Shown here: piece by piece, positions 12,367 to 47,375 of the stretch | Layout: every line of letters begins with the position of its first letter | Position numbering within the stretch: position 1 is the stretch's first letter | DNA from: an uncultured Gammaproteobacteria bacterium | Lineage (GTDB): Bacteria; Patescibacteriota; Microgenomatia; Daviesbacterales; UBA10151 | Assembly: GCA_964422835.1 (NCBI GenBank) | Contig: CAYRCR010000004.1 | Coordinates: forward strand, 1-57,807 | Reading direction: 5' to 3' | Length of the DNA stretch: 57,807 nt | Notes under the pieces: model-generated | Told to the model about the DNA's origin: nothing | What the model saw: the letters and a program-made list of their open reading frames with translations, nothing else | Database searches by the model: none | Translations under genes and position numbers: made by a program

Positions 12367-12447
12367 GGCAATAGAGCTAAAATATCACGAAGTGGATCAA
12401 GTTTTTTCCAGGTTGATAGTTTTTAGTTCATCAAGTATAATTTCTTC

Positions 12448-12840
12448 ATGCCGAAAAGAGTTTATCAATTCGACTCGATTTTTCAACTTTTTCCCAAAGT
12501 AAAATTAGTTTATTTGTTTGGATCCAGGGCTGTTGGTCAAGAAGGTCCCCTAAGTGATTATGATTTTGCAGCCTACATAGACGAACAGGATGTTAAAAAA
12601 AGATTTAATGTAAGGTTAGATTTATTAGACAAGCTTTCCCGGGAGTTAAGAACTGATAATATAGACCTGTCCGTTCTAAATGATATTCAAAGCCCGGAGT
12701 TAAAATATTCGATCATATCTAGTGGCCGGTTGATTTATAAGAAGGAGCCTTACAAGGTGTTGATTGAACCACGGATCTTAAGTGAATATTTTGATTTTAC
12801 TGATAGTCTCCAAAGATATGGTTTAACTAAAAATATATGA
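12448..12840 (+). CDS. mntA: MntA-type minimal nucleotidyltransferase antitoxin
   Basis: The GSX10DXD motif 'GSRAVGQEGPLSDYD' is present. The gene overlaps the downstream DUF86 gene by 4 nt. Its first 7 codons duplicate the rpmH start. Confidence 0.8.
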   Translation: MPKRVYQFDSIFQLFPKVKLVYLFGSRAVGQEGPLSDYDFAAYIDEQDVKKRFNVRLDLLDKLSRELRTDNIDLSVLNDIQSPELKYSIISSGRLIYKKEPYKVLIEPRILSEYFDFTDSLQRYGLTKNI

Positions 12841-13259
12841 CGGACAATTTTATTATTGAATCCAAGATAAGCTCGATTCAAAAATATCTGCAAATTTTAA
12901 AAGGATTCCAAAACTATTCTCAGAAACAAATAGAAGGAGACGTCCATTTAAGGGGGTCAGCTGAACGTTATCTTTATTTACTGACTCAGTCCGTGCTTGA
13001 TTTGGCAGAGGCTATAATTTCTTTTAAAGATTTACGCCGCCCGCAAACATATAGCGAGTCTTTTGATATTTTACATGAGGAGAAACTTATTTCCCCGGAC
13101 TTAACAGAAAAGCTGGTGAAAATGGCCAAATTTAGAAACATCATTTCCCGTGATTATGAGGATTTGGATTTTACAATTATTTATGACGTTTTACAAAAGC
13201 ATTTGCAGGATATTGAAGAATTTTTATCTGTGGTAGAAGATAAATTAAACATTCATTAG
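12837..13259 (+). CDS. hepT: HepT/DUF86 HEPN-domain toxin homologue with a variant active-site motif
   Basis: DUF86-like helical protein paired with MntA. The motif region reads 'FRNIISRDYEDLD', with Arg where the Rx4HxY consensus has His. Confidence 0.75.
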   Translation: MTDNFIIESKISSIQKYLQILKGFQNYSQKQIEGDVHLRGSAERYLYLLTQSVLDLAEAIISFKDLRRPQTYSESFDILHEEKLISPDLTEKLVKMAKFRNIISRDYEDLDFTIIYDVLQKHLQDIEEFLSVVEDKLNIH

Positions 13260-13305
13260 TTTTTATCCACTGGTGAACTTATTTTAATTATGTTAGAATT
13301 TCTCC

Positions 13306-13443
13306 ATGCCGAAAAGAGTTTACCAGCCCAAAAAATTAAAAAGGCTAAGAAAGCATGGTTTCCGCGAAAGGATGCAAACTTCTGATGGGAAAAAAGTTCT
13401 AGCCAGAAGAAGGGCTAAAGGCCGGAGGAAGTTAAGTGTATAG
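13306..13443 (+). CDS. rpmH: 50S ribosomal protein L34 (absent from the supplied ORF track)
   Basis: My own translation gives '[45 protein letters not shown]' (45 aa) with TAG at 13441..13443. Its position upstream of rnpA is canonical. Confidence 0.9.
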
Positions 13444-13523: not shown

Positions 13524-13895
13524 ATGCTTCCTAAAAGTAAAAGATTAAATCTCAAGAAGGATTTTAAATGGGTGGCATCTGGACAAAAAATAGAAGATTC
13601 CCTAATGAAGATTTTTTACAGATCTTGTGATCCCTCGACTCAGTTTACCCTGAGCTTGTCGAAGGGCTCAGGACCTTCAGTTGGGATTGCATTATCAACC
13701 TCGGTTTTTCGAAAAGCAGTTGATCGAAACAGGGCAAGACGCTTAACTTCCAAAGCGTTTGAGGGACTTTATGATAAAATACCCCGGAACCTGAATATTG
13801 TGGCTATGCCCAAGGCCGGAATTCTGGATAAAAAGTCTGGGGAAGTAATAAAGGACTTGGAAGAATTACTAATGAAAAACGATCTTTTGAAGTGA
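13524..13895 (+). CDS. rnpA: RNase P protein component
   Basis: 'AVDRNRARRLTSKAF' matches the RNR motif region, and the rpmH-rnpA-yidD-yidC synteny is standard. The gene contains a hairpin-module insertion at 13647..13672. Confidence 0.85.
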   Translation: MLPKSKRLNLKKDFKWVASGQKIEDSLMKIFYRSCDPSTQFTLSLSKGSGPSVGIALSTSVFRKAVDRNRARRLTSKAFEGLYDKIPRNLNIVAMPKAGILDKKSGEVIKDLEELLMKNDLLK

Positions 13896-13987
13896 GAAAT
13901 GAGAAGTGAGAATTTGAAATCTTGAATTCAAGAATTCTTGACATCAAAAATTCAATATCAAAAATATCCCACATCTCACGTCAAAAC
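13884..13987. repeat. MITE-like palindromic repeat, copy A (full length, overlaps the rnpA stop codon)
   Basis: The terminal inverted repeats are 'CTTTTGAAGTGAGAAATGAGAAGTGAGA' and 'TCCCACATCTCACGTCAAAAC'. The palindromic core is 'CTTGAATTCAAGAATTCTTGACATCAA'. Related copies lie at 24854, 44626 and 46723. Confidence 0.75.
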
Positions 13988-13995
13988 ATCTAATT

Positions 13996-23884: not shown

Positions 23885-25174
23885 CTATCCAGACAGTGAC
23901 AGGTTGGGGTTGGCTTGGAGGGTTAGGGGATCGGCTGGTTTAAAATTATAGAAAGCAGCCGCTGCGATGTAAGCTGCATTGTCTGTACAAAGAGATGGGG
24001 GAGGCATGAACACAGTTCGCGCTTGCGCGCTAAAAACCCCGGCATGTGGTATTTTTAATTTAGCCTTTGCAACGAGCTGACTGGACAACATTTGGTTGGC
24101 AGCCACCCCTCCGGCCACGACAATTTGGGTCACATTATTAACTTTTGTGGCCTGAATAGTTTTTGTGATCAATACATCAAGGATGGCTTGTTGTATAGAG
24201 GCGCAGAGATTATTCATTATTTGTTCTCGCTCGGGGTCCTGCCGCTCCAGTTTCCCGTCGTCCGTCCTCATCGTCATTGCGGGCGCGGCGTCGGGAGCCC
24301 TCTTGCGCGTCACCCCTCGCTCCATTTCCTGAACTAAATTAAGTACCGCTGTTTTGAGTCCCGAAAAAGAGAAGTCAAAATCTTTGGAATTAATCATTGG
24401 CCGGGGTAATTTGTAGGCTTTGGGGTTGCCTTTTTCTGCCAGTTTGGAAATAATGGGGCCTCCGGGGTATCCTAAACCCAAAAGCCTGGCGCACTTATCA
24501 AAACATTCTCCGGCCGCATCATCCCGTGTTCCTCCTAAATATTCATACTTGCCATGACTCTTAAAGAGAACCAGGTCTGTATGCCCTCCGGAAACAAGAA
24601 GGCCAATACAGGGGAAGCTGGGGGTTATAGGAGCTTCTCGATTCGAAGACTCTCTCGAAGAAGAACTATTGTTCGAGCGCAGTCGAGAACTTTCCTCTTG
24701 TTGTATCCAATTTGCATAAAAATGACCCAGTAAGTGATTGACCGGCACTAAAGGTTTTTGCCAGATTATGGATAAGACCTTGGCAGTTTCAACACCAACG
24801 AGTAGTGAGCCGATCAGTCCCGGGCCTTCTGTTACAGCAATGGCATCTATTTTGGAAATGAGATGTGAGAGGTGAGATGTTTTTGATATCGAATTCTTAA
24901 TATCAAGATCTCTTGACTTCAAAGAATCAGGTTCACACTTCTCATTTCCCACTTCAAAAGCTCTAAGCAGTGTTTCTTCAATAACCGGAATAATGGATTT
25001 TAACTGTTCCCGGGCAGCCTGTTCCGGGATAACCCCACCATATTTAGACTGCAGATCAGCCGAGGAGGCGACGATATTGGATAATAAAGTTACTCTATCT
25101 CCCTCTTTTTGAACGACTGCAGCAGCCGTTTCATCACAACTACTCTCTATTCCCAGGATTATTTTTGGTTTCAT
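23885..25174 (-). CDS. tsaD: tRNA N6-adenosine threonylcarbamoyltransferase TsaD carrying three insertion segments
   Basis: 'ILGIESSCDETAAAVV', 'GPGLIGSLLVG', 'LLVSGGHTDL' and 'FSFSGLKT' are conserved TsaD/Kae1 blocks. The product is 429 aa, compared with about 340 aa for typical TsaD. Confidence 0.9.
   Translation of the reverse strand: MKPKIILGIESSCDETAAAVVQKEGDRVTLLSNIVASSADLQSKYGGVIPEQAAREQLKSIIPVIEETLLRAFEVGNEKCEPDSLKSRDLDIKNSISKTSHLSHLISKIDAIAVTEGPGLIGSLLVGVETAKVLSIIWQKPLVPVNHLLGHFYANWIQQEESSRLRSNNSSSSRESSNREAPITPSFPCIGLLVSGGHTDLVLFKSHGKYEYLGGTRDDAAGECFDKCARLLGLGYPGGPIISKLAEKGNPKAYKLPRPMINSKDFDFSFSGLKTAVLNLVQEMERGVTRKRAPDAAPAMTMRTDDGKLERQDPEREQIMNNLCASIQQAILDVLITKTIQATKVNNVTQIVVAGGVAANQMLSSQLVAKAKLKIPHAGVFSAQARTVFMPPPSLCTDNAAYIAAAAFYNFKPADPLTLQANPNLSLSG
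24854..24960. repeat. MITE-like palindromic repeat, copy C (inverted orientation, in frame inside tsaD)
   Basis: The reverse complement 'CTTTTGAAGTGGGAAATGAGAAGTGTGAA...GATATCAAAAACATCTCACCTCTCACATCTCATTTCC' aligns with copy A. It encodes roughly 'FEVGNEKCEPDSLKSRDLDIKNSISKTSHLSHLIS'. Confidence 0.75.
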
Positions 25175-39901: not shown

Positions 39902-40237
39902 ATGGGAAGAAAACCTAAAACTATACCCTATACCCTAAACCCTAAACCCTCGATTAGGCCTTTGGCGGGCTTTGTTTTAATTGAACCATCGGAAGCTGAA
40001 AGTAAAACTTCCTCCGGCATTATTTTGCCTGAATCTGCACAAGAAAAACCCAGCCTGGGTAAAATTTTATCCTGCGGTGAGGATCAAGTTTTAGAAAATG
40101 GCAAGACTTTAAAATGTCCTGTAAAGGCGGGGGATATGGTTTTCTATAAAAAATGGGGTGGGGATGAAATTAAAATTGATAGTAAAGAATTAAAACTTGT
40201 AAAATTCGATGATTTAATGGCTATTGTGGAGAAATAA
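39902..40237 (+). CDS. groES: Co-chaperonin GroES with a 17-aa N-terminal extension encoded by a heptamer repeat
   Basis: 'IRPLAGFVLIEP...KTSSGIILPESAQEKPSLGKILSCG...GDMVFYKKWGGDEIKIDSKELKLVKFDDLMAIVE' is the GroES fold pattern. Homology begins at residue 18. Confidence 0.85.
   Translation: MGRKPKTIPYTLNPKPSIRPLAGFVLIEPSEAESKTSSGIILPESAQEKPSLGKILSCGEDQVLENGKTLKCPVKAGDMVFYKKWGGDEIKIDSKELKLVKFDDLMAIVEK
39922..39949. repeat. Heptamer tandem repeat (TA[T/A]ACCC x4) within the groES 5' region
   Basis: It reads 'TATACCC TATACCC TAAACCC TAAACCC' directly. Confidence 0.8.
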
Positions 40238-40238
40238 T

Positions 40239-40616
40239 ATGACAGAAATAAATAAAATGAGGACGCAAGAACAACTTGAACGAGATTTAAAAAGTGTGAG
40301 ATGGAGGAAAGAGGAATTGAAGCAACCACTCCCTCGGATTTGTAATTTGTCATATCGGGAACAAATTACTACCCAGGTGAGTACATGTGAAGTAATGGAA
40401 CAGGTGTTAGAATATGTGCTTGGTCATAGACAGACATTACCTCAGGTACTTCTGGATACAGGGCTGAAAGAAACATCTGTTGCTCTGGAAGCTATTTTAG
40501 AAGGAGATCCCCCTGCTGCTGTTAATATTGGCGATAGGCGGATTCCTTTAAATGTTGCAGATGATTTCAAGGGGTTAAAACTACCTGTAATTGGAAGAGG
40601 GGATTTTAATATTTAG
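40239..40616 (+). CDS. groESL-embedded cassette ORF c1 (125 aa), unknown function, C-terminal '...VIGRGDFNI' module
   Basis: The ATG lies 1 nt after the groES stop, behind GGAG. The C-terminal 35 aa are homologous to c5. Confidence 0.6.
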   Translation: MTEINKMRTQEQLERDLKSVRWRKEELKQPLPRICNLSYREQITTQVSTCEVMEQVLEYVLGHRQTLPQVLLDTGLKETSVALEAILEGDPPAAVNIGDRRIPLNVADDFKGLKLPVIGRGDFNI

Positions 40617-40632
40617 AAGGGATAAAATATGG
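40584..40632 (+). repeat. 49-bp exact direct repeat (c1 3' end plus initiation module), partner at 42017..42065
   Basis: 'CCTGTAATTGGAAGAGGGGATTTTAATATTTAGAAGGGATAAAATATGG' is identical at both sites. Weaker similarity extends about 43 bp upstream. Confidence 0.9.
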
Positions 40633-41072
40633 CAGAAAGATTGACAACATTTGAAATTCCGGCTAGATATGAAAACTTGGATGTCTCTGACCTGGAGTGC
40701 CGGCGCGACGAGTTGTGGGGGGAAATATATGATGGTTGTTCAGGTCTATCTTTTAGTGACCCCACCCTAGGTGAGCTTGCTCTGCAAACAGAACAAAATA
40801 TTGCATATTTAGAACTAAAGGCAGTTTTGGTTGTAAAAGGAGGAAGGCAGAGGGCAGCAGATTACCTAAATGCTGTTGTTATAGATCCTCTCCGTGAATC
40901 TTTGGCAAAAATAAACGGAATCGGGGGAATTCCAGATGCATCGACGAGCCGTTTACTAGGGAGAGTTCCTCGAGATGGTGAAATATTGGGTGGGCCGGTG
41001 AGAATTGGATTTAACCAAGATGGACAAAGAATAGATGGCTTATCACCAATGTATCCTTGCCCGTGGAGATAG
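40629..41072 (+). CDS. groESL-embedded cassette ORF c2 (147 aa), unknown function
   Basis: It is preceded by 'AAGGGATAAAATATGGCAGAAAGATTGAC' and starts 'MAERL'. Confidence 0.6.
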   Translation: MAERLTTFEIPARYENLDVSDLECRRDELWGEIYDGCSGLSFSDPTLGELALQTEQNIAYLELKAVLVVKGGRQRAADYLNAVVIDPLRESLAKINGIGGIPDASTSRLLGRVPRDGEILGGPVRIGFNQDGQRIDGLSPMYPCPWR

Positions 41073-41091
41073 TAAATAAAAAGGATAAAAT

Positions 41092-41358
41092 ATGGCAGAA
41101 AGATTGACTGATGAACAAAGAGCGAGTTTTGAAGCTTTCTTTGAGCAAGAAATAGCAACTGCGAGAAAAAATACAAGGGCCAGTATTGACCCATATGGAT
41201 CAGTCTGGCTCTCCAACACTCCTGAGCAGCAAATAATGACCGGTTTATTAAATATTCAAGAAGGTTTACGTCTTGCCTTAGGAAAAGTTTCAATCGAGAA
41301 TATCGTTGTCCATCGTACGGATGGAGATTTTCCAATTAAACCTAAGGAGGGGAAATAA
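41092..41358 (+). CDS. groESL-embedded cassette ORF c3 (88 aa), unknown function
   Basis: It is preceded by 'AAAGGATAAAATATGGCAGAAAGATTGAC' and starts 'MAERL'. Confidence 0.55.
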   Translation: MAERLTDEQRASFEAFFEQEIATARKNTRASIDPYGSVWLSNTPEQQIMTGLLNIQEGLRLALGKVSIENIVVHRTDGDFPIKPKEGK

Positions 41359-41362
41359 AAAC

Positions 41363-41659
41363 ATGGCAGAAAGATTTGAAATAAAGAGAACATCGGAAGA
41401 AATAGCATCGGTATTTGATGCTACCAAAGCGCAATTTGAAAGTCTCAAAAAAGGGCCAACTGATTCTGCGATGGGAGAAGTTGTTGGATTCGGACTGGAT
41501 GCAACATTTGCGGGGATATTAATGGAGGCCAGATTGAGAGAAAGAATAGAAGTACTGCGGTTTTTGCAGGGCGAGGAAAATGAAATTTCCAGTTTAATTT
41601 CGGTAATGAATTATATGAAAACAAAAGAATCCGCTAGTGTTGGTAAAGAAGAAGGATAA
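41363..41659 (+). CDS. groESL-embedded cassette ORF c4 (98 aa), unknown function
   Basis: I prefer the internal ATG at 41363 ('ACATGGCAGAAAGATTTG', giving 'MAERF'), which lies 4 nt after the c3 stop. Confidence 0.55.
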   Translation: MAERFEIKRTSEEIASVFDATKAQFESLKKGPTDSAMGEVVGFGLDATFAGILMEARLRERIEVLRFLQGEENEISSLISVMNYMKTKESASVGKEEG

Positions 41660-41662
41660 AGT

Positions 41663-42049
41663 ATGGCAAATCAAGAAAGAAATTTTAGAGCAGCAGAGCC
41701 AGAAGGTATTAGAGAATCAATGACAAGTCTTAGGGATAGAATGGACGAGATAGTATCTTTTGTAGAACGAATGGAAATGTCGCTTGCCATCCCCCTAGTG
41801 TGTAGTGGAAGGGTGCCACTTACTGACTTGCAAACCTGGCAAAAATTAGGGTATGAACATGCAAGGCATTTTACTGATGTTTTGGATGCGCTAACTGAAG
41901 AGGTGTTTGAACAGCCGGCAGAAGCTACGATAATAGGTAATCCTCCGGAGGCCATAGAAGTTGGTGGACGGAAAATTCCTGTAAATGTGGCAGATTCTTT
42001 CAAGGGGTTGAAACCGCCTGTAATTGGAAGAGGGGATTTTAATATTTAG
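41663..42049 (+). CDS. groESL-embedded cassette ORF c5 (128 aa), unknown function, C-terminal '...VIGRGDFNI' module
   Basis: It is preceded by 'AAGGATAAAGTATGGCAAA'. Its C-terminus 'GRKIPVNVADSFKGLKPPVIGRGDFNI' parallels c1 'DRRIPLNVADDFKGLKLPVIGRGDFNI'. Confidence 0.6.
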   Translation: MANQERNFRAAEPEGIRESMTSLRDRMDEIVSFVERMEMSLAIPLVCSGRVPLTDLQTWQKLGYEHARHFTDVLDALTEEVFEQPAEATIIGNPPEAIEVGGRKIPVNVADSFKGLKPPVIGRGDFNI

Positions 42050-42065
42050 AAGGGATAAAATATGG
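42017..42065 (+). repeat. 49-bp exact direct repeat (c5 3' end plus initiation module), partner at 40584..40632
   Basis: The sequence is identical to 40584..40632. Confidence 0.9.
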
Positions 42066-42394
42066 GAGAAATATCAGACGGCGAAAAAGCATTAACAGAT
42101 CTGCAAAAAATTGATCTTGTGCGTCAGGTTGATCGTGCAGAGACGCGGGTAAAAGTTGATATTAAAGCTATAGTAGGAGCTCCTTTTCATGCAGATTTGT
42201 TGCTGCCGCTGGTTTTAAGGCTTAAGCATTTGGAAATGTTTGGGCTCGGTTTAGGGCTTGGTTGTGGAGATTTGCCTGCCAGATTTGCGGAAAATGGTTT
42301 CCTTTTGGGAACAGGAATAAAAGTAAGAGATGAAGCCGCTATTTTACGAGAGAGGGAAGAGAGAGCGAAAATGAGGGAGGTAAATAGCCCGTAA
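42062..42394 (+). CDS. groESL-embedded cassette ORF c6 (110 aa), unknown function
   Basis: It is preceded by 'AAGGGATAAAATATGGGAGAA' and contains a 'GLGLGLGCG' segment. Confidence 0.55.
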   Translation: MGEISDGEKALTDLQKIDLVRQVDRAETRVKVDIKAIVGAPFHADLLLPLVLRLKHLEMFGLGLGLGCGDLPARFAENGFLLGTGIKVRDEAAILREREERAKMREVNSP

Positions 42395-42413
42395 TTTTTT
42401 AAAAGGATAAAAT

Positions 42414-42977
42414 ATGGCAGACCAAGAAAAACAATTATTAGCAATAGATCCTACAACTGTATGCCCTGGAAAAGTGATGGGGCGTGATAACTACGCCATC
42501 GAAGATCTTCCGGTAGCTAAAGATCGACAAGGGCGGTGGTATTTCTGCCGGGGTTTGGTCACTGAAAGGTTGAATCCTTATAATAAATCAACAGGACAAT
42601 TGGAATGGGTTCAACCAGGCACTAATTTACTGGACAGAGCTAAAGCAGCATATGACAAGATGTATCAAGACCCAAGAGGCCGGGTTGTGCTGGGGTTAGC
42701 GGCAGAAGTAGTTGGGTTGGGTATGACGGGGGATTTGAGATACCCGCCGGATAATCTAGGAATATGGGTGTTAATTGGAGAAGAAGATGGTTTGGAAAGT
42801 GCGGCAGCAAGGGTTGAGTCTGATGGGGGAGCAGATTTTATGTATATGGATATTAAAAAGATTAGGGCAGGAGAAGAACAAGGGTCAAAAGATGTAGCGG
42901 CTAGTTATGAAGCTTCTGCGCGAGGGCCGTGGGGATGTCAAGTAAGAGGATGTGAACCAGAACACAGAAGATGGTAA
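42414..42977 (+). CDS. groESL-embedded cassette ORF c7 (187 aa), unknown function
   Basis: It is preceded by 'TTTTTTAAAAGGATAAAATATGGCAGA', almost the same as the groEL leader. Confidence 0.6.
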   Translation: MADQEKQLLAIDPTTVCPGKVMGRDNYAIEDLPVAKDRQGRWYFCRGLVTERLNPYNKSTGQLEWVQPGTNLLDRAKAAYDKMYQDPRGRVVLGLAAEVVGLGMTGDLRYPPDNLGIWVLIGEEDGLESAAARVESDGGADFMYMDIKKIRAGEEQGSKDVAASYEASARGPWGCQVRGCEPEHRRW

Positions 42978-42994: not shown

Positions 42995-44617
<1,623 letters not shown>

Positions 44618-44625
44618 ATAGATGT

Positions 44626-44704
44626 CTTGAAGTGAGAAATGTGAAGTGAGAACTTGAAATCTTGAATTCAAGAATTCTTGACATCAAAAATCCGATATCA
44701 AAAG
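44626..44704. repeat. MITE-like palindromic repeat, copy B (left arm plus core; right arm degenerate), just after groEL
   Basis: 'CTTGAAGTGAGAAATGTGAAGTGAGAACTTGAAATCTTGAATTCAAGAATTCTTGACATCAAAAATCCGATATCAAAAG' is nearly identical to copy A over about 75 bp. Confidence 0.8.
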
Positions 44705-44822
44705 ATTAGCAGAGATTCCCGCTACTGAGTGTAAAGAAGGGGTGGGGGTATCTATAAATCCTTTTTACTGAGCTAAATGTTCATGATCCTAGCTGGAACA
44801 CACATCACTTTGTGACTTAAAG

Positions 44823-45413
44823 CTAACAATTACCTTTTGTTTCCAATACTGGGAATCCCTTAAAATCACGTAAATACCTTAACAGAGCCGACTGGTCATC
44901 AATAAGGTTAGCTGGTAACTCATAACTTTTACCCTCTTTTAAGAAAAGATAAGGGTAGTAATGACACGAATACTTACCCTTAGATAATTGAATACCTATT
45001 CCCTTTATATCTTCCCAAAGCACTTGATGTATAGCTTTTGAGCTTACTGCATTAAGTGTAAAATCCCCAACCTCTAAATATTTAGGTGTGACTTTTATGT
45101 ATGAGCGAAAAGAAGCTAAAATAAAGATAATATAAACAGCAGTTAAGATCGCTAAAATTACTAACGCAGTCTGGGAAACTGGTCTTTTAGTGAACTTACT
45201 GATTAAAACTTCTTTTAAAGCTAAAAATCCGAAAAGAGCATAGAAAAAGTTAATTATCCAAAATCCTGCTTTTGAACCCCACACTATACAACTATCTACG
45301 TTCCCGCAATAATAACTCTCTTGGAGCTTACCAAGTAACAAACTTCCACTGACTGTTAAAATAACAATCAGAATCAACAATTGCCACTCTTCTTTAAGTA
45401 ATCTTTCTAACAT
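44823..45413 (-). CDS. Hypothetical membrane protein (196 aa)
   Basis: Three or four TM helices followed by a soluble C-terminal domain. No motif. Confidence 0.5.
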   Translation of the reverse strand: MLERLLKEEWQLLILIVILTVSGSLLLGKLQESYYCGNVDSCIVWGSKAGFWIINFFYALFGFLALKEVLISKFTKRPVSQTALVILAILTAVYIIFILASFRSYIKVTPKYLEVGDFTLNAVSSKAIHQVLWEDIKGIGIQLSKGKYSCHYYPYLFLKEGKSYELPANLIDDQSALLRYLRDFKGFPVLETKGNC

Positions 45414-45422
45414 AGTCCTTAA

Positions 45423-46529
45423 TTATGTATTAGAAAACAACGCACTAAACAGAAGCGATGCTACAGCCAAAACAACAACTCCCAACATAACATAAAGGAA
45501 AGAAAATAAAACCTTTTTTGAAGTCTTATAGGTAGGATTGTTCCAAGTTTTATTAAGCCCGAAAATAATCACAAAACCACAAAGTAATCCCGCTATACCT
45601 CCTAATATCTGACCAACAATTATCACAACTAAATAACTTAAACTCCACAGATAAGGGTGTTTGGATTTTACTTCAATATCTTTTGCTTCGATACTCTCCC
45701 CTTTTTGACTTTTAGTTACAATTTTATTTATTACATTAAAAACTGAGGTCGTTGTTGGTAGACTATAGGGGACAGCTTCATTTTCGGGAGCCCAAGCCAT
45801 TTTAAGCACTTTTCCACTTCGTAAATTAACATCAAATGTGGTAGGAAAACCAAATCCCTTCCAAAACTGGACATCTTTTATTGAAGATAAAGGAATAATA
45901 GTTAAGGGGCTTGTACTGATAATAAGTTCTTTACCTGTAGCCACAACTTTATAACGTTGCGGTGTAGTAAGTGAAGCGTACCAAGGAGGATTGAGTAAAA
46001 TAGTATTTTCGTATAAACGCTCTTTATTCCCTATATAAGTATTTAAATCTTCTTCTTGCTTTAGTTTTAATGACTTATTTTTTATCCGTACAGATAATAT
46101 TGCACTATAATTCTGAAGACCAAGAATAATTAATAGCCCAAAAAGCATAGCAAGAAAGTAAATACCACCACTTGCGTTATTAGAGGGCATAATTAAACCC
46201 ATTTGTGGTTGTATCTTTTCTATAAAATCACGCTGCTTAACATAAAACACAACCCATCCCACCAAGGCGGTAAGCCATACAAAAGCAACTTTAGAATACT
46301 GATCTGGCGTTTTCCCTCTTCCATAAATTAACGCCCAAGTTATTCCTGTTAAAAACAAAAAAGATATGAAATAGAAGTAATAAAAGCTCCAATTCAAGGA
46401 GCCATAATTCAAAGCTAAGGTAAAATAGCTGATATTTTGCCCATCTGTAGTTGTTATTCCAGACGGCAAAAACAAAAGGGTTGCTAAAATAAAAATCAGA
46501 CCAAATGAAATATAGTCGTATACTTTCAT
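45423..46529 (-). CDS. Hypothetical polytopic membrane protein (368 aa)
   Basis: Multiple TM helices flank a central soluble segment. No motif. Same strand as 44823..45413, with a 9-nt gap. Confidence 0.5.
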   Translation of the reverse strand: MKVYDYISFGLIFILATLLFLPSGITTTDGQNISYFTLALNYGSLNWSFYYFYFISFLFLTGITWALIYGRGKTPDQYSKVAFVWLTALVGWVVFYVKQRDFIEKIQPQMGLIMPSNNASGGIYFLAMLFGLLIILGLQNYSAILSVRIKNKSLKLKQEEDLNTYIGNKERLYENTILLNPPWYASLTTPQRYKVVATGKELIISTSPLTIIPLSSIKDVQFWKGFGFPTTFDVNLRSGKVLKMAWAPENEAVPYSLPTTTSVFNVINKIVTKSQKGESIEAKDIEVKSKHPYLWSLSYLVVIIVGQILGGIAGLLCGFVIIFGLNKTWNNPTYKTSKKVLFSFLYVMLGVVVLAVASLLFSALFSNT

Positions 46530-46560
46530 TTCTTCCTTATTTTTAGTATAGCACTTCTCT

Positions 46561-46588
46561 TACAGATTACAGATTACAGATTACAGAG
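46561..46588. repeat. Heptamer tandem repeat (TACAGAT x3 plus TACAGAG) upstream of the 45423..46529 gene
   Basis: It reads 'TACAGATTACAGATTACAGATTACAGAG' directly and lies about 30 nt upstream of the minus-strand start codon. Confidence 0.85.
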
Positions 46589-46722
46589 TACTACTATCTG
46601 GTAAAATAGAGACATCCTCAGAAAGGAAGATGTAATGAACTCGTGATAATTGATCCTGTGAATGACTTAAACAATAAGATTAGAGGTATTGAATTGCAAC
46701 AACTATTTACAAAGCTAGAAAA

Positions 46723-46754
46723 GATCAAAAATATCCCACATCCCACTTCAAAAG
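46723..46754. repeat. MITE-like repeat, copy D (right arm only)
   Basis: 'GATCAAAAATATCCCACATCCCACTTCAAAAG' matches the right arm of copy A and is the reverse complement of the left-arm TIR. Confidence 0.6.
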
Positions 46755-46778
46755 TTCCAATATAGTATTATATAGGTA

Positions 46779-47375
46779 ATGGCCAAGTTGCATTACAAAG
46801 AATCCCCGACAGAGAATGAAAAAAAGGCTTTTGCCCCGGTTTTGGCAGAGGATGAGGAGTTGATACTGGCTACCGGTTTGGGTCGTGCCTATCTCCGTTC
46901 CAAATTCATAGTCGGGATCATGTGGCCGGGGGGTATTTTTATAGTATTGGCTTTAGCTCTGTTCTATTTTGCCGGGTTTAATTTGAGTTTGGGTATCTTG
47001 GCAGGTTTAGCGCTGGGAGCGGTATTTTCCATGCTTCACACCATGCATGTCTACCATGCCAACCGCTACCTTTTGACCACCCGGCGGGTAATTATTAAGC
47101 AGGGTATTTTTGCCGTCAAATTGACCTCGGCCCTGTTTGATAAAATTACCCACATCGAGGTTGAACAGTCTTTCCTTGATAAATTAGTTATGAAACACGG
47201 CACAATCATTGTTAATACTGCCGGCATGAATAAAGCTGAAATTGCCTTAAAGTATGTAGATTACCCGATTGAGCTTAAAAACCTTCTTGAAAGGTTAATC
47301 AACAGGGAGAGGGAGCAATACGGCCGGGGGGTAGGGCCAATTACCACACTGGAAGGAGAAGTATTGGAGGATTAA
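46779..47375 (+). CDS. Membrane protein with a bacterial PH domain (bPH_2/YdbS-like)
   Basis: Two TM helices are followed by 'RYLLTTRRVIIKQGIFAVKLTSALFDKITHIEVEQSFLDKLVMKHGTIIVNTAG'. Confidence 0.7.
   Translation: MAKLHYKESPTENEKKAFAPVLAEDEELILATGLGRAYLRSKFIVGIMWPGGIFIVLALALFYFAGFNLSLGILAGLALGAVFSMLHTMHVYHANRYLLTTRRVIIKQGIFAVKLTSALFDKITHIEVEQSFLDKLVMKHGTIIVNTAGMNKAEIALKYVDYPIELKNLLERLINREREQYGRGVGPITTLEGEVLED

Follow-up and report, generated by a model that had tools for sequence, protein, structure and literature searches.

The window examined here is the whole 57,807-nt stretch of contig CAYRCR010000004.1 (assembly GCA_964422835.1, forward strand), which belongs to an ultra-small groundwater bacterium of the Candidate Phyla Radiation (CPR)/Patescibacteria. 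Its tsaD gene, which encodes the tRNA t6A37 threonylcarbamoyltransferase subunit, contains an in-frame copy of a palindromic repeat, and related copies are found at rnpA and groEL. The window holds a single family of these repeats, about 110 bp long here, that was probably inserted three times rather than four. The genes and element copies that concern us are as follows:

13524-13895, plus strand: rnpA (RNase P protein; Pfam Ribonuclease_P), with its stop codon inside copy A.
13881-13991, plus strand: copy A, full length, in the rnpA-yidD interval; detected by the profile and by blastn-short.
23885-25174, minus strand: tsaD, 429 aa, uninterrupted; Pfam PF00814, E = 6.7e-77.
24852-24963, minus strand: copy B, full length, in frame in tsaD at residues ~72-108 (AFEVGNEKCEPDSLKSRDLDIKNSISKTSHLSHLISK); profile E = 3e-30.
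42998-44617, plus strand: groEL (Pfam Cpn60_TCP1, E = 1e-74), whose 3' end adjoins the C/D element.
44621-44703, plus strand: copy C, left arm and core, beginning 3 nt past the groEL stop; profile positions 1-83.
46731-46757 (refined limits 46724-46760; profile match 46721-46760), plus strand: copy D, right arm, with a bPH_2-domain gene (46779-47375) ~20 nt downstream of it; profile positions 74-113.

An initial annotation of this DNA reported four related stretches, and three methods agree on them to within a few bases. In blastn-short comparisons within the window, copy A matches copy C at 95% over 77 nt (E = 2e-30), copy B on the opposite strand at 81% over 96 nt (E = 2e-8) and copy D at 93% over 30 nt (E = 3e-7). 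The same pairs were recovered by repeat detection, and a profile built from six full copies matched nothing in the window apart from these four stretches. The similarity between copies is thus formally significant.

Members of the family range from 105 to 145 bp and are AT-rich (35% GC; the window as a whole is 41% GC). Two or three heptamers in tandem make up each arm (GAAGTGA GAAATGA GAAGTGA ... TCCCACA TCTCACG), and the element ends as (TA)GATnTTTTGAAGTG...CACnTCAAAAnATC(TA), where the outer TA is frequent and not constant. The inverted symmetry spans the full length of the element and not its termini only. The terminal inverted repeats described initially are real as part of this larger symmetry; the EcoRI-containing core CTTGAATTCAAGAATTCTTG, in contrast, is not a family trait, as it occurs in copies A and C only and copy B has TTTGAAGTCAAGAGATCTTG in its place. 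Folded as RNA, copy A forms an extended, almost perfect hairpin (plus strand, -26.3 kcal/mol, z -3.2; minus strand, -40.7 kcal/mol, z -6.2), and copy B folds with -29.6 kcal/mol (z -4.3). Intergenic copies contain stops in nearly all six frames and have no coding capacity of their own. The first 15 nt of copy A provide the last four codons of rnpA and its TGA stop, so that the rnpA product ends in NDLLK; the element does supply the end of this gene, as first proposed. The 107-aa and 123-aa versions of the rnpA product differ only in the start codon called. The family is missing from the syntenic tsaD and rnpA-yidD sites of a relative (locus L038).

Copies C and D point the same way, complement each other as the two halves of an element and are separated by a single segment:

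44704-46730 (2,027 bp): segment between C and D, containing two membrane-protein open reading frames (ORFs) without a Pfam match, both on the minus strand, at 44823-45413 and 45423-46529.

When this segment is removed, C and D join without a gap and the product is identical to copy A at 103 of 114 positions. To judge from this alignment, C and D are most likely a single copy that was split by a later insertion. The four stretches would then correspond to three insertion events, since C and D rejoin colinearly, and the initial count holds for stretches and not for separate insertions. The heptanucleotide ATCAAAA is present at both junctions of the segment, which has no inverted ends of its own and was apparently inserted into the element copy with a 7-bp duplication. 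We considered its two ORFs as candidates for an autonomous transposase and rejected them, because they encode membrane proteins without a Pfam match. The C/D arrangement is unchanged in 10 other assemblies. Close to copy D, at ~46563-46590, the tandem heptamer CAGATTA is repeated three times in the window, as in one other assembly, and twice in nine others; its unit number is a length polymorphism in the population.

The host of copy B is a genuine TsaD by its Pfam domain, its fold and its conserved residues: H147, H151 and D398, which occupy the catalytic and metal-binding columns, are invariant in an alignment of CPR TsaD sequences. The closest relatives of the protein are Patescibacteria/CPR proteins with just 59-61% identity. 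tsaD is taken to be essential in this host, as it is in other bacteria. Exactly the same 429-aa protein is encoded on 8 contigs (6 of the 8 among those listed) from several assemblies, and the insert is therefore not a mis-assembly. Contigs with the same TsaD come from groundwater metagenomes of the Rifle aquifer (GCA_001777495.1, ANAN16 scaffolds). The reading frame passes through the element without a stop and reads AFEVGNEKCEPDSLKSRDLDIKNSISKTSHLSHLISK immediately ahead of IDAIAVTEGPGL, which bears out the earlier description of an in-frame, stop-free loop of ~35 aa just before that block.

Aligned to TsaD chains in the PDB, the protein shows three breaks, the first of which contains the element:

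Break 1: query residues 70-105 (36 aa), against chain residues 64-69 (6 aa).
Break 2: query residues 160-185 (26 aa), against chain residues 124-125 (2 aa).
Break 3: query residues 289-320 (32 aa), against chain residues 227-228 (2 aa).

The first site has 11 aa in 74 of the 120 aligned CPR TsaDs and is longer in 45. None of the 119 CPR orthologues, these 45 included, has a peptide like the insert in the window. A phmmer search with the 37-aa insert against 1.84 billion representative proteins likewise returned no matches, a result of little power with so short a query. With no homologous peptide in either, the insertion is lineage-specific, as the initial annotation anticipated.

An AlphaFold2 model computed from the 120-sequence alignment (mean pLDDT 87.6, pTM 0.88) superimposes on the YgjD/TsaD structures 3zet and 4ydu with a target-normalized Foldseek TM-score of 0.91. 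In this model the TsaD fold is intact apart from the insert, which projects from it as an excursion at the place where the solved TsaDs have a six-residue connection. The excursion departs from the end of helix α1 in the N-terminal subdomain and is predicted to comprise, over residues ~72-107, an extension of α1, a short helix and a return helix (predicted helices 50-74, 82-85 and 92-106). Its pLDDT values of 58-68 compare with 92-95 in the flanking residues. The position of the copy B insert would thus be compatible with the fold. In published TsaB-TsaD structures, α1 and α2 form the dimer interface.

The family is not confined to this window. A scan for a 25-nt left-arm pattern in one genome per species identified true members in Levyibacteriota JACPTT01, in Microgenomates JACOYE01 and in a 37%-GC bin that is labelled Gammaproteobacteria and has CPR-like genes; a metagenome scan added five loci. 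Further copies are present in at least four other metagenome-assembled genomes (MAGs) and in metagenome contigs. As far as found, the family is limited to a group of Microgenomates-type CPR bacteria, including Levybacteria. The left-arm pattern had no matches in viral contigs. A profile of seven element peptides yielded no scoring candidate among proteins, although such short queries have little power. Matches of the 25-nt arm pattern outside CPR were rejected as members because they are tandem heptamer arrays. These loci (L010, L011, L013, L014, L016 and L018-L022) belong to Bacteroidota, Latescibacterota, Desulfobacterota and Acidobacteriota MAGs; their arrays consist of (G/A)TG(A/G)GAA units, ~18 of them in L018, and several lie beside gene starts. 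On a Pyrinomonadaceae chromosome (L014, 3933-4025) the motif is found in a palindrome.

In addition to tsaD, in-frame copies occur in genes for RluA-family pseudouridine synthases (L017 and L034/L037) and in the gene for a protein without a Pfam match (L033) that, by eye only, looks HAD-like. All of these genic hosts read the element on the same strand and in the same frame, as FEV[RG]N..K[WC]...SKTSHxS. The RluA insert corresponds in position to just three residues of the solved structure 11wx. Twelve RluA orthologues (57-71% identity) carry it at the same site and nearly always with 31 residues, and the copy is therefore old and vertically inherited. The remaining orthologues have a loop of 19-23 residues or unrelated inserts; the 65 aligned RluA sequences were enriched for long ones, so that these fractions are not frequencies.

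Intergenic copies are positioned with respect to the gene before them. In all seven cases with a co-directional upstream gene (rnpA, groEL, rho, pgk, rpsP, yidC and a glyoxalase-like gene), the stop codon of that gene falls between -18 and +18 nt relative to the first GAAGTG. The left arm contains TGA in all three frames. In four of the seven the stop is itself element sequence: in rnpA (ending NDLLK, as above), in pgk (ending LEVRNEK), as the TAG of TAGAT and in TCTTAG. The groEL stop, a TAG, lies 14 nt ahead of the first GAAGTG of copy C. Every one of 11 independent copies, the genic ones included, is in the forward orientation relative to transcription (two-sided binomial p ~0.001). GC skew switches at ~10-12 kb, beside dnaA, from which we take the plus strand to be leading over the remaining window and tsaD to be encoded on the lagging strand. 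Copy B is inverted along with this lagging-strand gene, so the orientation of the elements follows transcription and not replication.

The RluA copies permit a comparison of the element with its host gene at the nucleotide level. We compared the DNA of six orthologous copies in 15 pairs, and the same pattern was obtained in every pair. Nucleotide identity is 0.75-0.91 inside the element and 0.63-0.78 in the rest of the gene, and the difference is larger at third codon positions (0.72-0.94 versus 0.38-0.59). Identical residues are encoded by identical codons in 244 of 285 cases (86%) inside the element and in 1084 of 2312 (47%) outside it. Amino-acid identity inside the element is equal to or lower than that of the rest, and no codon periodicity is seen. 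Gene conversion or concerted evolution is not supported as the source of this conservation, because the genic copies group by orthology: they are 75-91% identical to one another and 77-79% identical to intergenic copies of the same MAG. Base pairing is retained in 86% of cells across the six copies, through conservation of both arms.

[quoted passage not shown] The interpretation offered in the initial annotation is in essence right, and the elements form a new family of MITE/RPE-like repeats in a phylum for which the literature searched holds no such description. Under this interpretation, the elements are selfish DNA whose copies would persist only at permissive positions of compact genomes. 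One such position would be on or just past a stop codon, where a TAG or TGA of the left arm, available in all three frames, could end the host gene, as in rnpA. The other would be a surface connection of a protein, where the one nearly open frame (FEV[R/G]N[E/G]K[W/C]...SKTSHxS) could be read through; the product of copy B would be a helical excursion of ~35 residues at the end of α1 that leaves the catalytic core untouched. Spread of the element might depend on a transposase acting in trans, as its TA ends are compatible with an IS630/Tc1-type enzyme.

Several observations weigh against this interpretation. No presence/absence polymorphism was seen: contigs with the same TsaD, YidC and GroEL from at least 10 assemblies all carry the same copies, and mobility is for this reason inferred only from comparison between species, in which the sites are empty in relatives of ~60% identity. 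Direct repeats of at least 4 nt do not flank the copies consistently. TA adjoins many ends and is inseparable from the TAGAT...ATCTA of the palindrome itself; ATGAAAA, which lies on both sides of copy A, was rejected as a target-site duplication because it is not repeated at other copies. Neither the window nor any of the fetched loci yielded an autonomous insertion sequence (IS) whose ends match. The sole transposase-like sequence near any copy is a truncated 118-aa ORF (L036, 2129-2485) with sub-threshold IS630 and helix-turn-helix matches, and it lies outside the element. The term MITE-like is only partly established: size, full-length symmetry, multiple copies and the absence of coding capacity agree with it, and neither an autonomous partner nor a target-site duplication beyond a possible TA was seen. 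The RluA copy, at least, no longer behaves as mobile DNA, and its sequence conservation is unlike that predicted for a purely selfish, decaying insert. Translation of the insert is deduced from its open frame. Finally, neither eight family members nor the six orthologous copies show compensatory covariation. As an observation on the same L036 locus, a degenerate, interrupted copy of the element lies at 1853-2026, 100 nt from the 118-aa ORF, and ATP-synthase genes then follow.

The conservation of the RluA copies could instead mean that the element is a functional cis-acting nucleic-acid module, an RNA or DNA site in the form of a hairpin of heptamer iterons that is read by a CPR protein or has a role at mRNA 3' ends (in stability, termination or translation pausing). 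The in-frame copies would then be retained for this role, with the peptide as a by-product. The excess of synonymous identity (86% inside versus 47% outside), which is accompanied by neither higher amino-acid identity nor codon periodicity and which gene conversion does not explain given the grouping by orthology, is the kind of pattern that such a module would leave. So are the orientation locked to transcription (11/11), the precise placement at stop codons (7/7) and the constant insert length in 12 RluA orthologues. Under the selfish reading too, the orientation locked to transcription and a conservation above the synonymous rate of the host together indicate that the DNA or RNA sequence is itself under some constraint. 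Compensatory changes are lacking, so that selection for the hairpin structure is not demonstrated, and there is no match to an Rfam family; across the 57.8-kb window, no tRNA, tmRNA or Rfam family was found. Of the two strands, the sense strand forms, if anything, the less stable hairpin, and most TsaD and RluA orthologues do without the element. A promoter or terminator role was rejected: the promoter-like hexamers of copy A (TTGACA-16-AAAAAT) are not conserved in copy C or in other members, and no T-tract follows the hairpins. With these points on both sides, we regard a cis-acting module as a tentative alternative, less probable than selfish repeats.

It is far less probable that the insert escapes translation, either because ribosomes pass over its hairpin, in the manner of phage T4 gene 60 and of mitochondrial 'byp' elements, or because it is cut out of the RNA. 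Palindromic mobile inserts that ribosomes bypass are known, and a stable hairpin inside an ORF would suit such a mechanism. A segment that is bypassed or excised, however, needs neither an open nor a frame-preserving sequence, and the genic copies have both. In the tsaD frame, copy A contains one internal stop, the TGA of the third heptamer (GAA GTG AGA AAT GAG AAG TGA). This codon is TGT in copy B and TGG in the other in-frame copies, so the single in-frame stop of the family is replaced exactly in the genic copies. All genic copies are free of stops in the common frame (tsaD; the RluA-family genes of L017, L034/L037 and L053-L056; and the L033 protein), and insert length preserves the frame in more than 12 orthologues. 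Each of the eight intergenic copies is interrupted in that frame by one or more stops, among them the third-heptamer TGA in A, C, L009 and L008. No match to an intron or ribozyme family was found. The open frame argues that copy B is translated.

The same loop is variable in length in 45 of 120 CPR TsaDs, and one could propose that the tsaD segment is a hypervariable loop grown by slippage or duplication that resembles the repeats by coincidence, or that the other copies derive from tsaD; we rejected this as barely credible, because the segment is significantly similar to intergenic copies over the whole inverted symmetry, members of the family are found in unrelated genes and in spacers of other genomes, and many of the inserts that other lineages carry at this loop are palindromic repeats from different families.

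These other families point to repeated colonization of the loops by palindromes, rather than slippage. The three TsaD insertion sites are hypervariable in CPR bacteria, and a given peptide motif can appear at different sites in different orthologues. Twelve long inserts were tested in five orthologues with DNA, and 8 of them form strong palindromes (z -3.4 to -5.4). These palindromes have GTCAT...ATGAC ends, are GC-richer than and unrelated to the family in the window, and lie in frame in the same three loops. Loci of this type include L038 (10202-10306) and the tsaD genes of L049-L052, with peptides such as VIPANAGIQ...LDPRLRGDD and HPEFISGS, among others. The third of the hypervariable sites in the TsaD of the window also carries extra sequence:

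24203-24334, minus strand: third insertion hotspot of tsaD, residues 281-324; 61% GC (core 66%); encodes ERGVTRKRAPDAAPAMTMRTDDGKLERQDPEREQ.

The ERGVTRKRAPDAAPAMTMRTDDGKLERQDPEREQ patch resembles '..RGAP..RTSDG..RQDPE' peptides that other CPR TsaDs carry at their second or third hotspot. The segment has neither a second copy in the window nor a fold signal, and it is not palindromic; it is likely to be a decayed relic of a different, widespread repeat family. That palindromic repeats colonize the same surface loops in frame time after time thus seems to be a trait of CPR bacteria in general. In the literature searched, we found no description of the GTCAT...ATGAC peptide motifs or of MITE/RPE-like in-frame repeats in CPR.

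Other parts of the window contain arrangements of a different nature. In the dnaA-rpmH interval, at the GC-skew minimum, a toxin-antitoxin pair of the MNT (NTP_transf_2)/HepT type (12448-13259) is surrounded by a 32-bp direct repeat (12436-12467 and 13294-13325; 29 of 32 positions identical). The repeat consists of the region upstream of rpmH and rpmH codons 1-7 (MPKRVYQ), so that the MNT gene starts with the N-terminus of rpmH. The arrangement looks like the insertion of a cassette with a duplicated target. Elsewhere, groES (39902-40237) and groEL are set apart by seven small ORFs without a Pfam match (40224-42977), an unusual interruption of a groESL operon. Two of the small ORFs in this interval share a 42-aa C-terminal module (69% identical), and a 39-nt ribosome-binding/start region is common to five gene starts.

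The likeness to RPEs drawn in the initial annotation is apt as an analogy, given in-frame copies in unrelated genes and a conserved peptide. RPEs are palindromes of ~100-150 bp without a transposase that occur in intergenic positions and in frame in unrelated housekeeping genes (PMC10969869, summarising Ogata et al. 2000). They have one open frame with a conserved peptide, insert at positions compatible with the fold and reside in a host with a reduced genome (PMC10969869). The CPR element resembles them in each of these respects: it is a short palindrome without a transposase, intergenic and in frame, open in one frame, fold-compatible and found in reduced genomes. It differs from them in its phylum and in its arms of tandem heptamers, and the likeness claimed is one of behaviour: the element works like an RPE. 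It differs also in that its copies are co-oriented with transcription, that the intergenic ones sit on the upstream stop and that its sequence is conserved above the synonymous rate. RPEs are not known to show any of these three features.

With bacterial MITEs (Correia/NEMIS, ERIC, RUP and IS630-derived elements with a TA duplication), the CPR element shares small size, multiple copies, lack of coding capacity, terminal inverted repeats and, in several copies, a TA at both ends. It is distinguished from them by symmetry over its whole length, the absence of a demonstrable target-site duplication or of a cognate IS among the sequences searched, and the lack of polymorphism in at least 10 assemblies. 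MITEs occasionally form in-frame fusions with host ORFs (PMC10969869), and a 2024 review of MITEs treats RPEs as the outstanding case, others being only conjectured (PMC10969869). Repetitive extragenic palindromes (REPs) and the bacterial interspersed mosaic elements (BIMEs) built from them are also found just after genes and are thought to act as mRNA 3' hairpins and protein-binding sites. REPs, in contrast, are 20-40 nt long, GC-rich, linked to RAYT transposases and not found in frame in genes, whereas the CPR element is 105-145 nt, 35% GC and also present in ORFs. The GTCAT...ATGAC inserts of other CPR TsaDs are the closest parallel in position, being strongly palindromic and in frame in the same three loops, but are unrelated in sequence and GC-richer. 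Translational-bypass inserts need be neither open nor in frame and often contain stops, whereas the genic CPR copies are all open and frame-preserving.

In-frame colonization of essential genes by palindromes has so far been treated as a peculiarity of Rickettsia, and the CPR elements are a second, independent case from a very different lineage of reduced genomes, in which unrelated palindromes enter the same TsaD and RluA loops repeatedly. Colonization of this kind would account for part of the unusual variation in the length of CPR proteins, and it is relevant to gene calling and to homology modelling in CPR MAGs. The inserts are also natural experiments that identify surface sites able to tolerate additions of 30-40 residues. 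A more far-reaching proposal, which we put forward as a conjecture, is that many of the lineage-specific extra segments of CPR housekeeping proteins are in-frame palindromic repeats of several families, with the three TsaD loops and the RluA hairpin loop colonized repeatedly, and that the family described here, rather than decaying as junk, is under purifying selection within ORFs, locked to transcription, for a cis-acting RNA or DNA function. If this were true, a cis-acting function, for example the site of a heptamer-binding protein or an mRNA hairpin, would be embedded in coding sequence. With synonymous conservation and the orientation rule in hand, the choice between purely selfish repeats and a function at the nucleic-acid level becomes testable.

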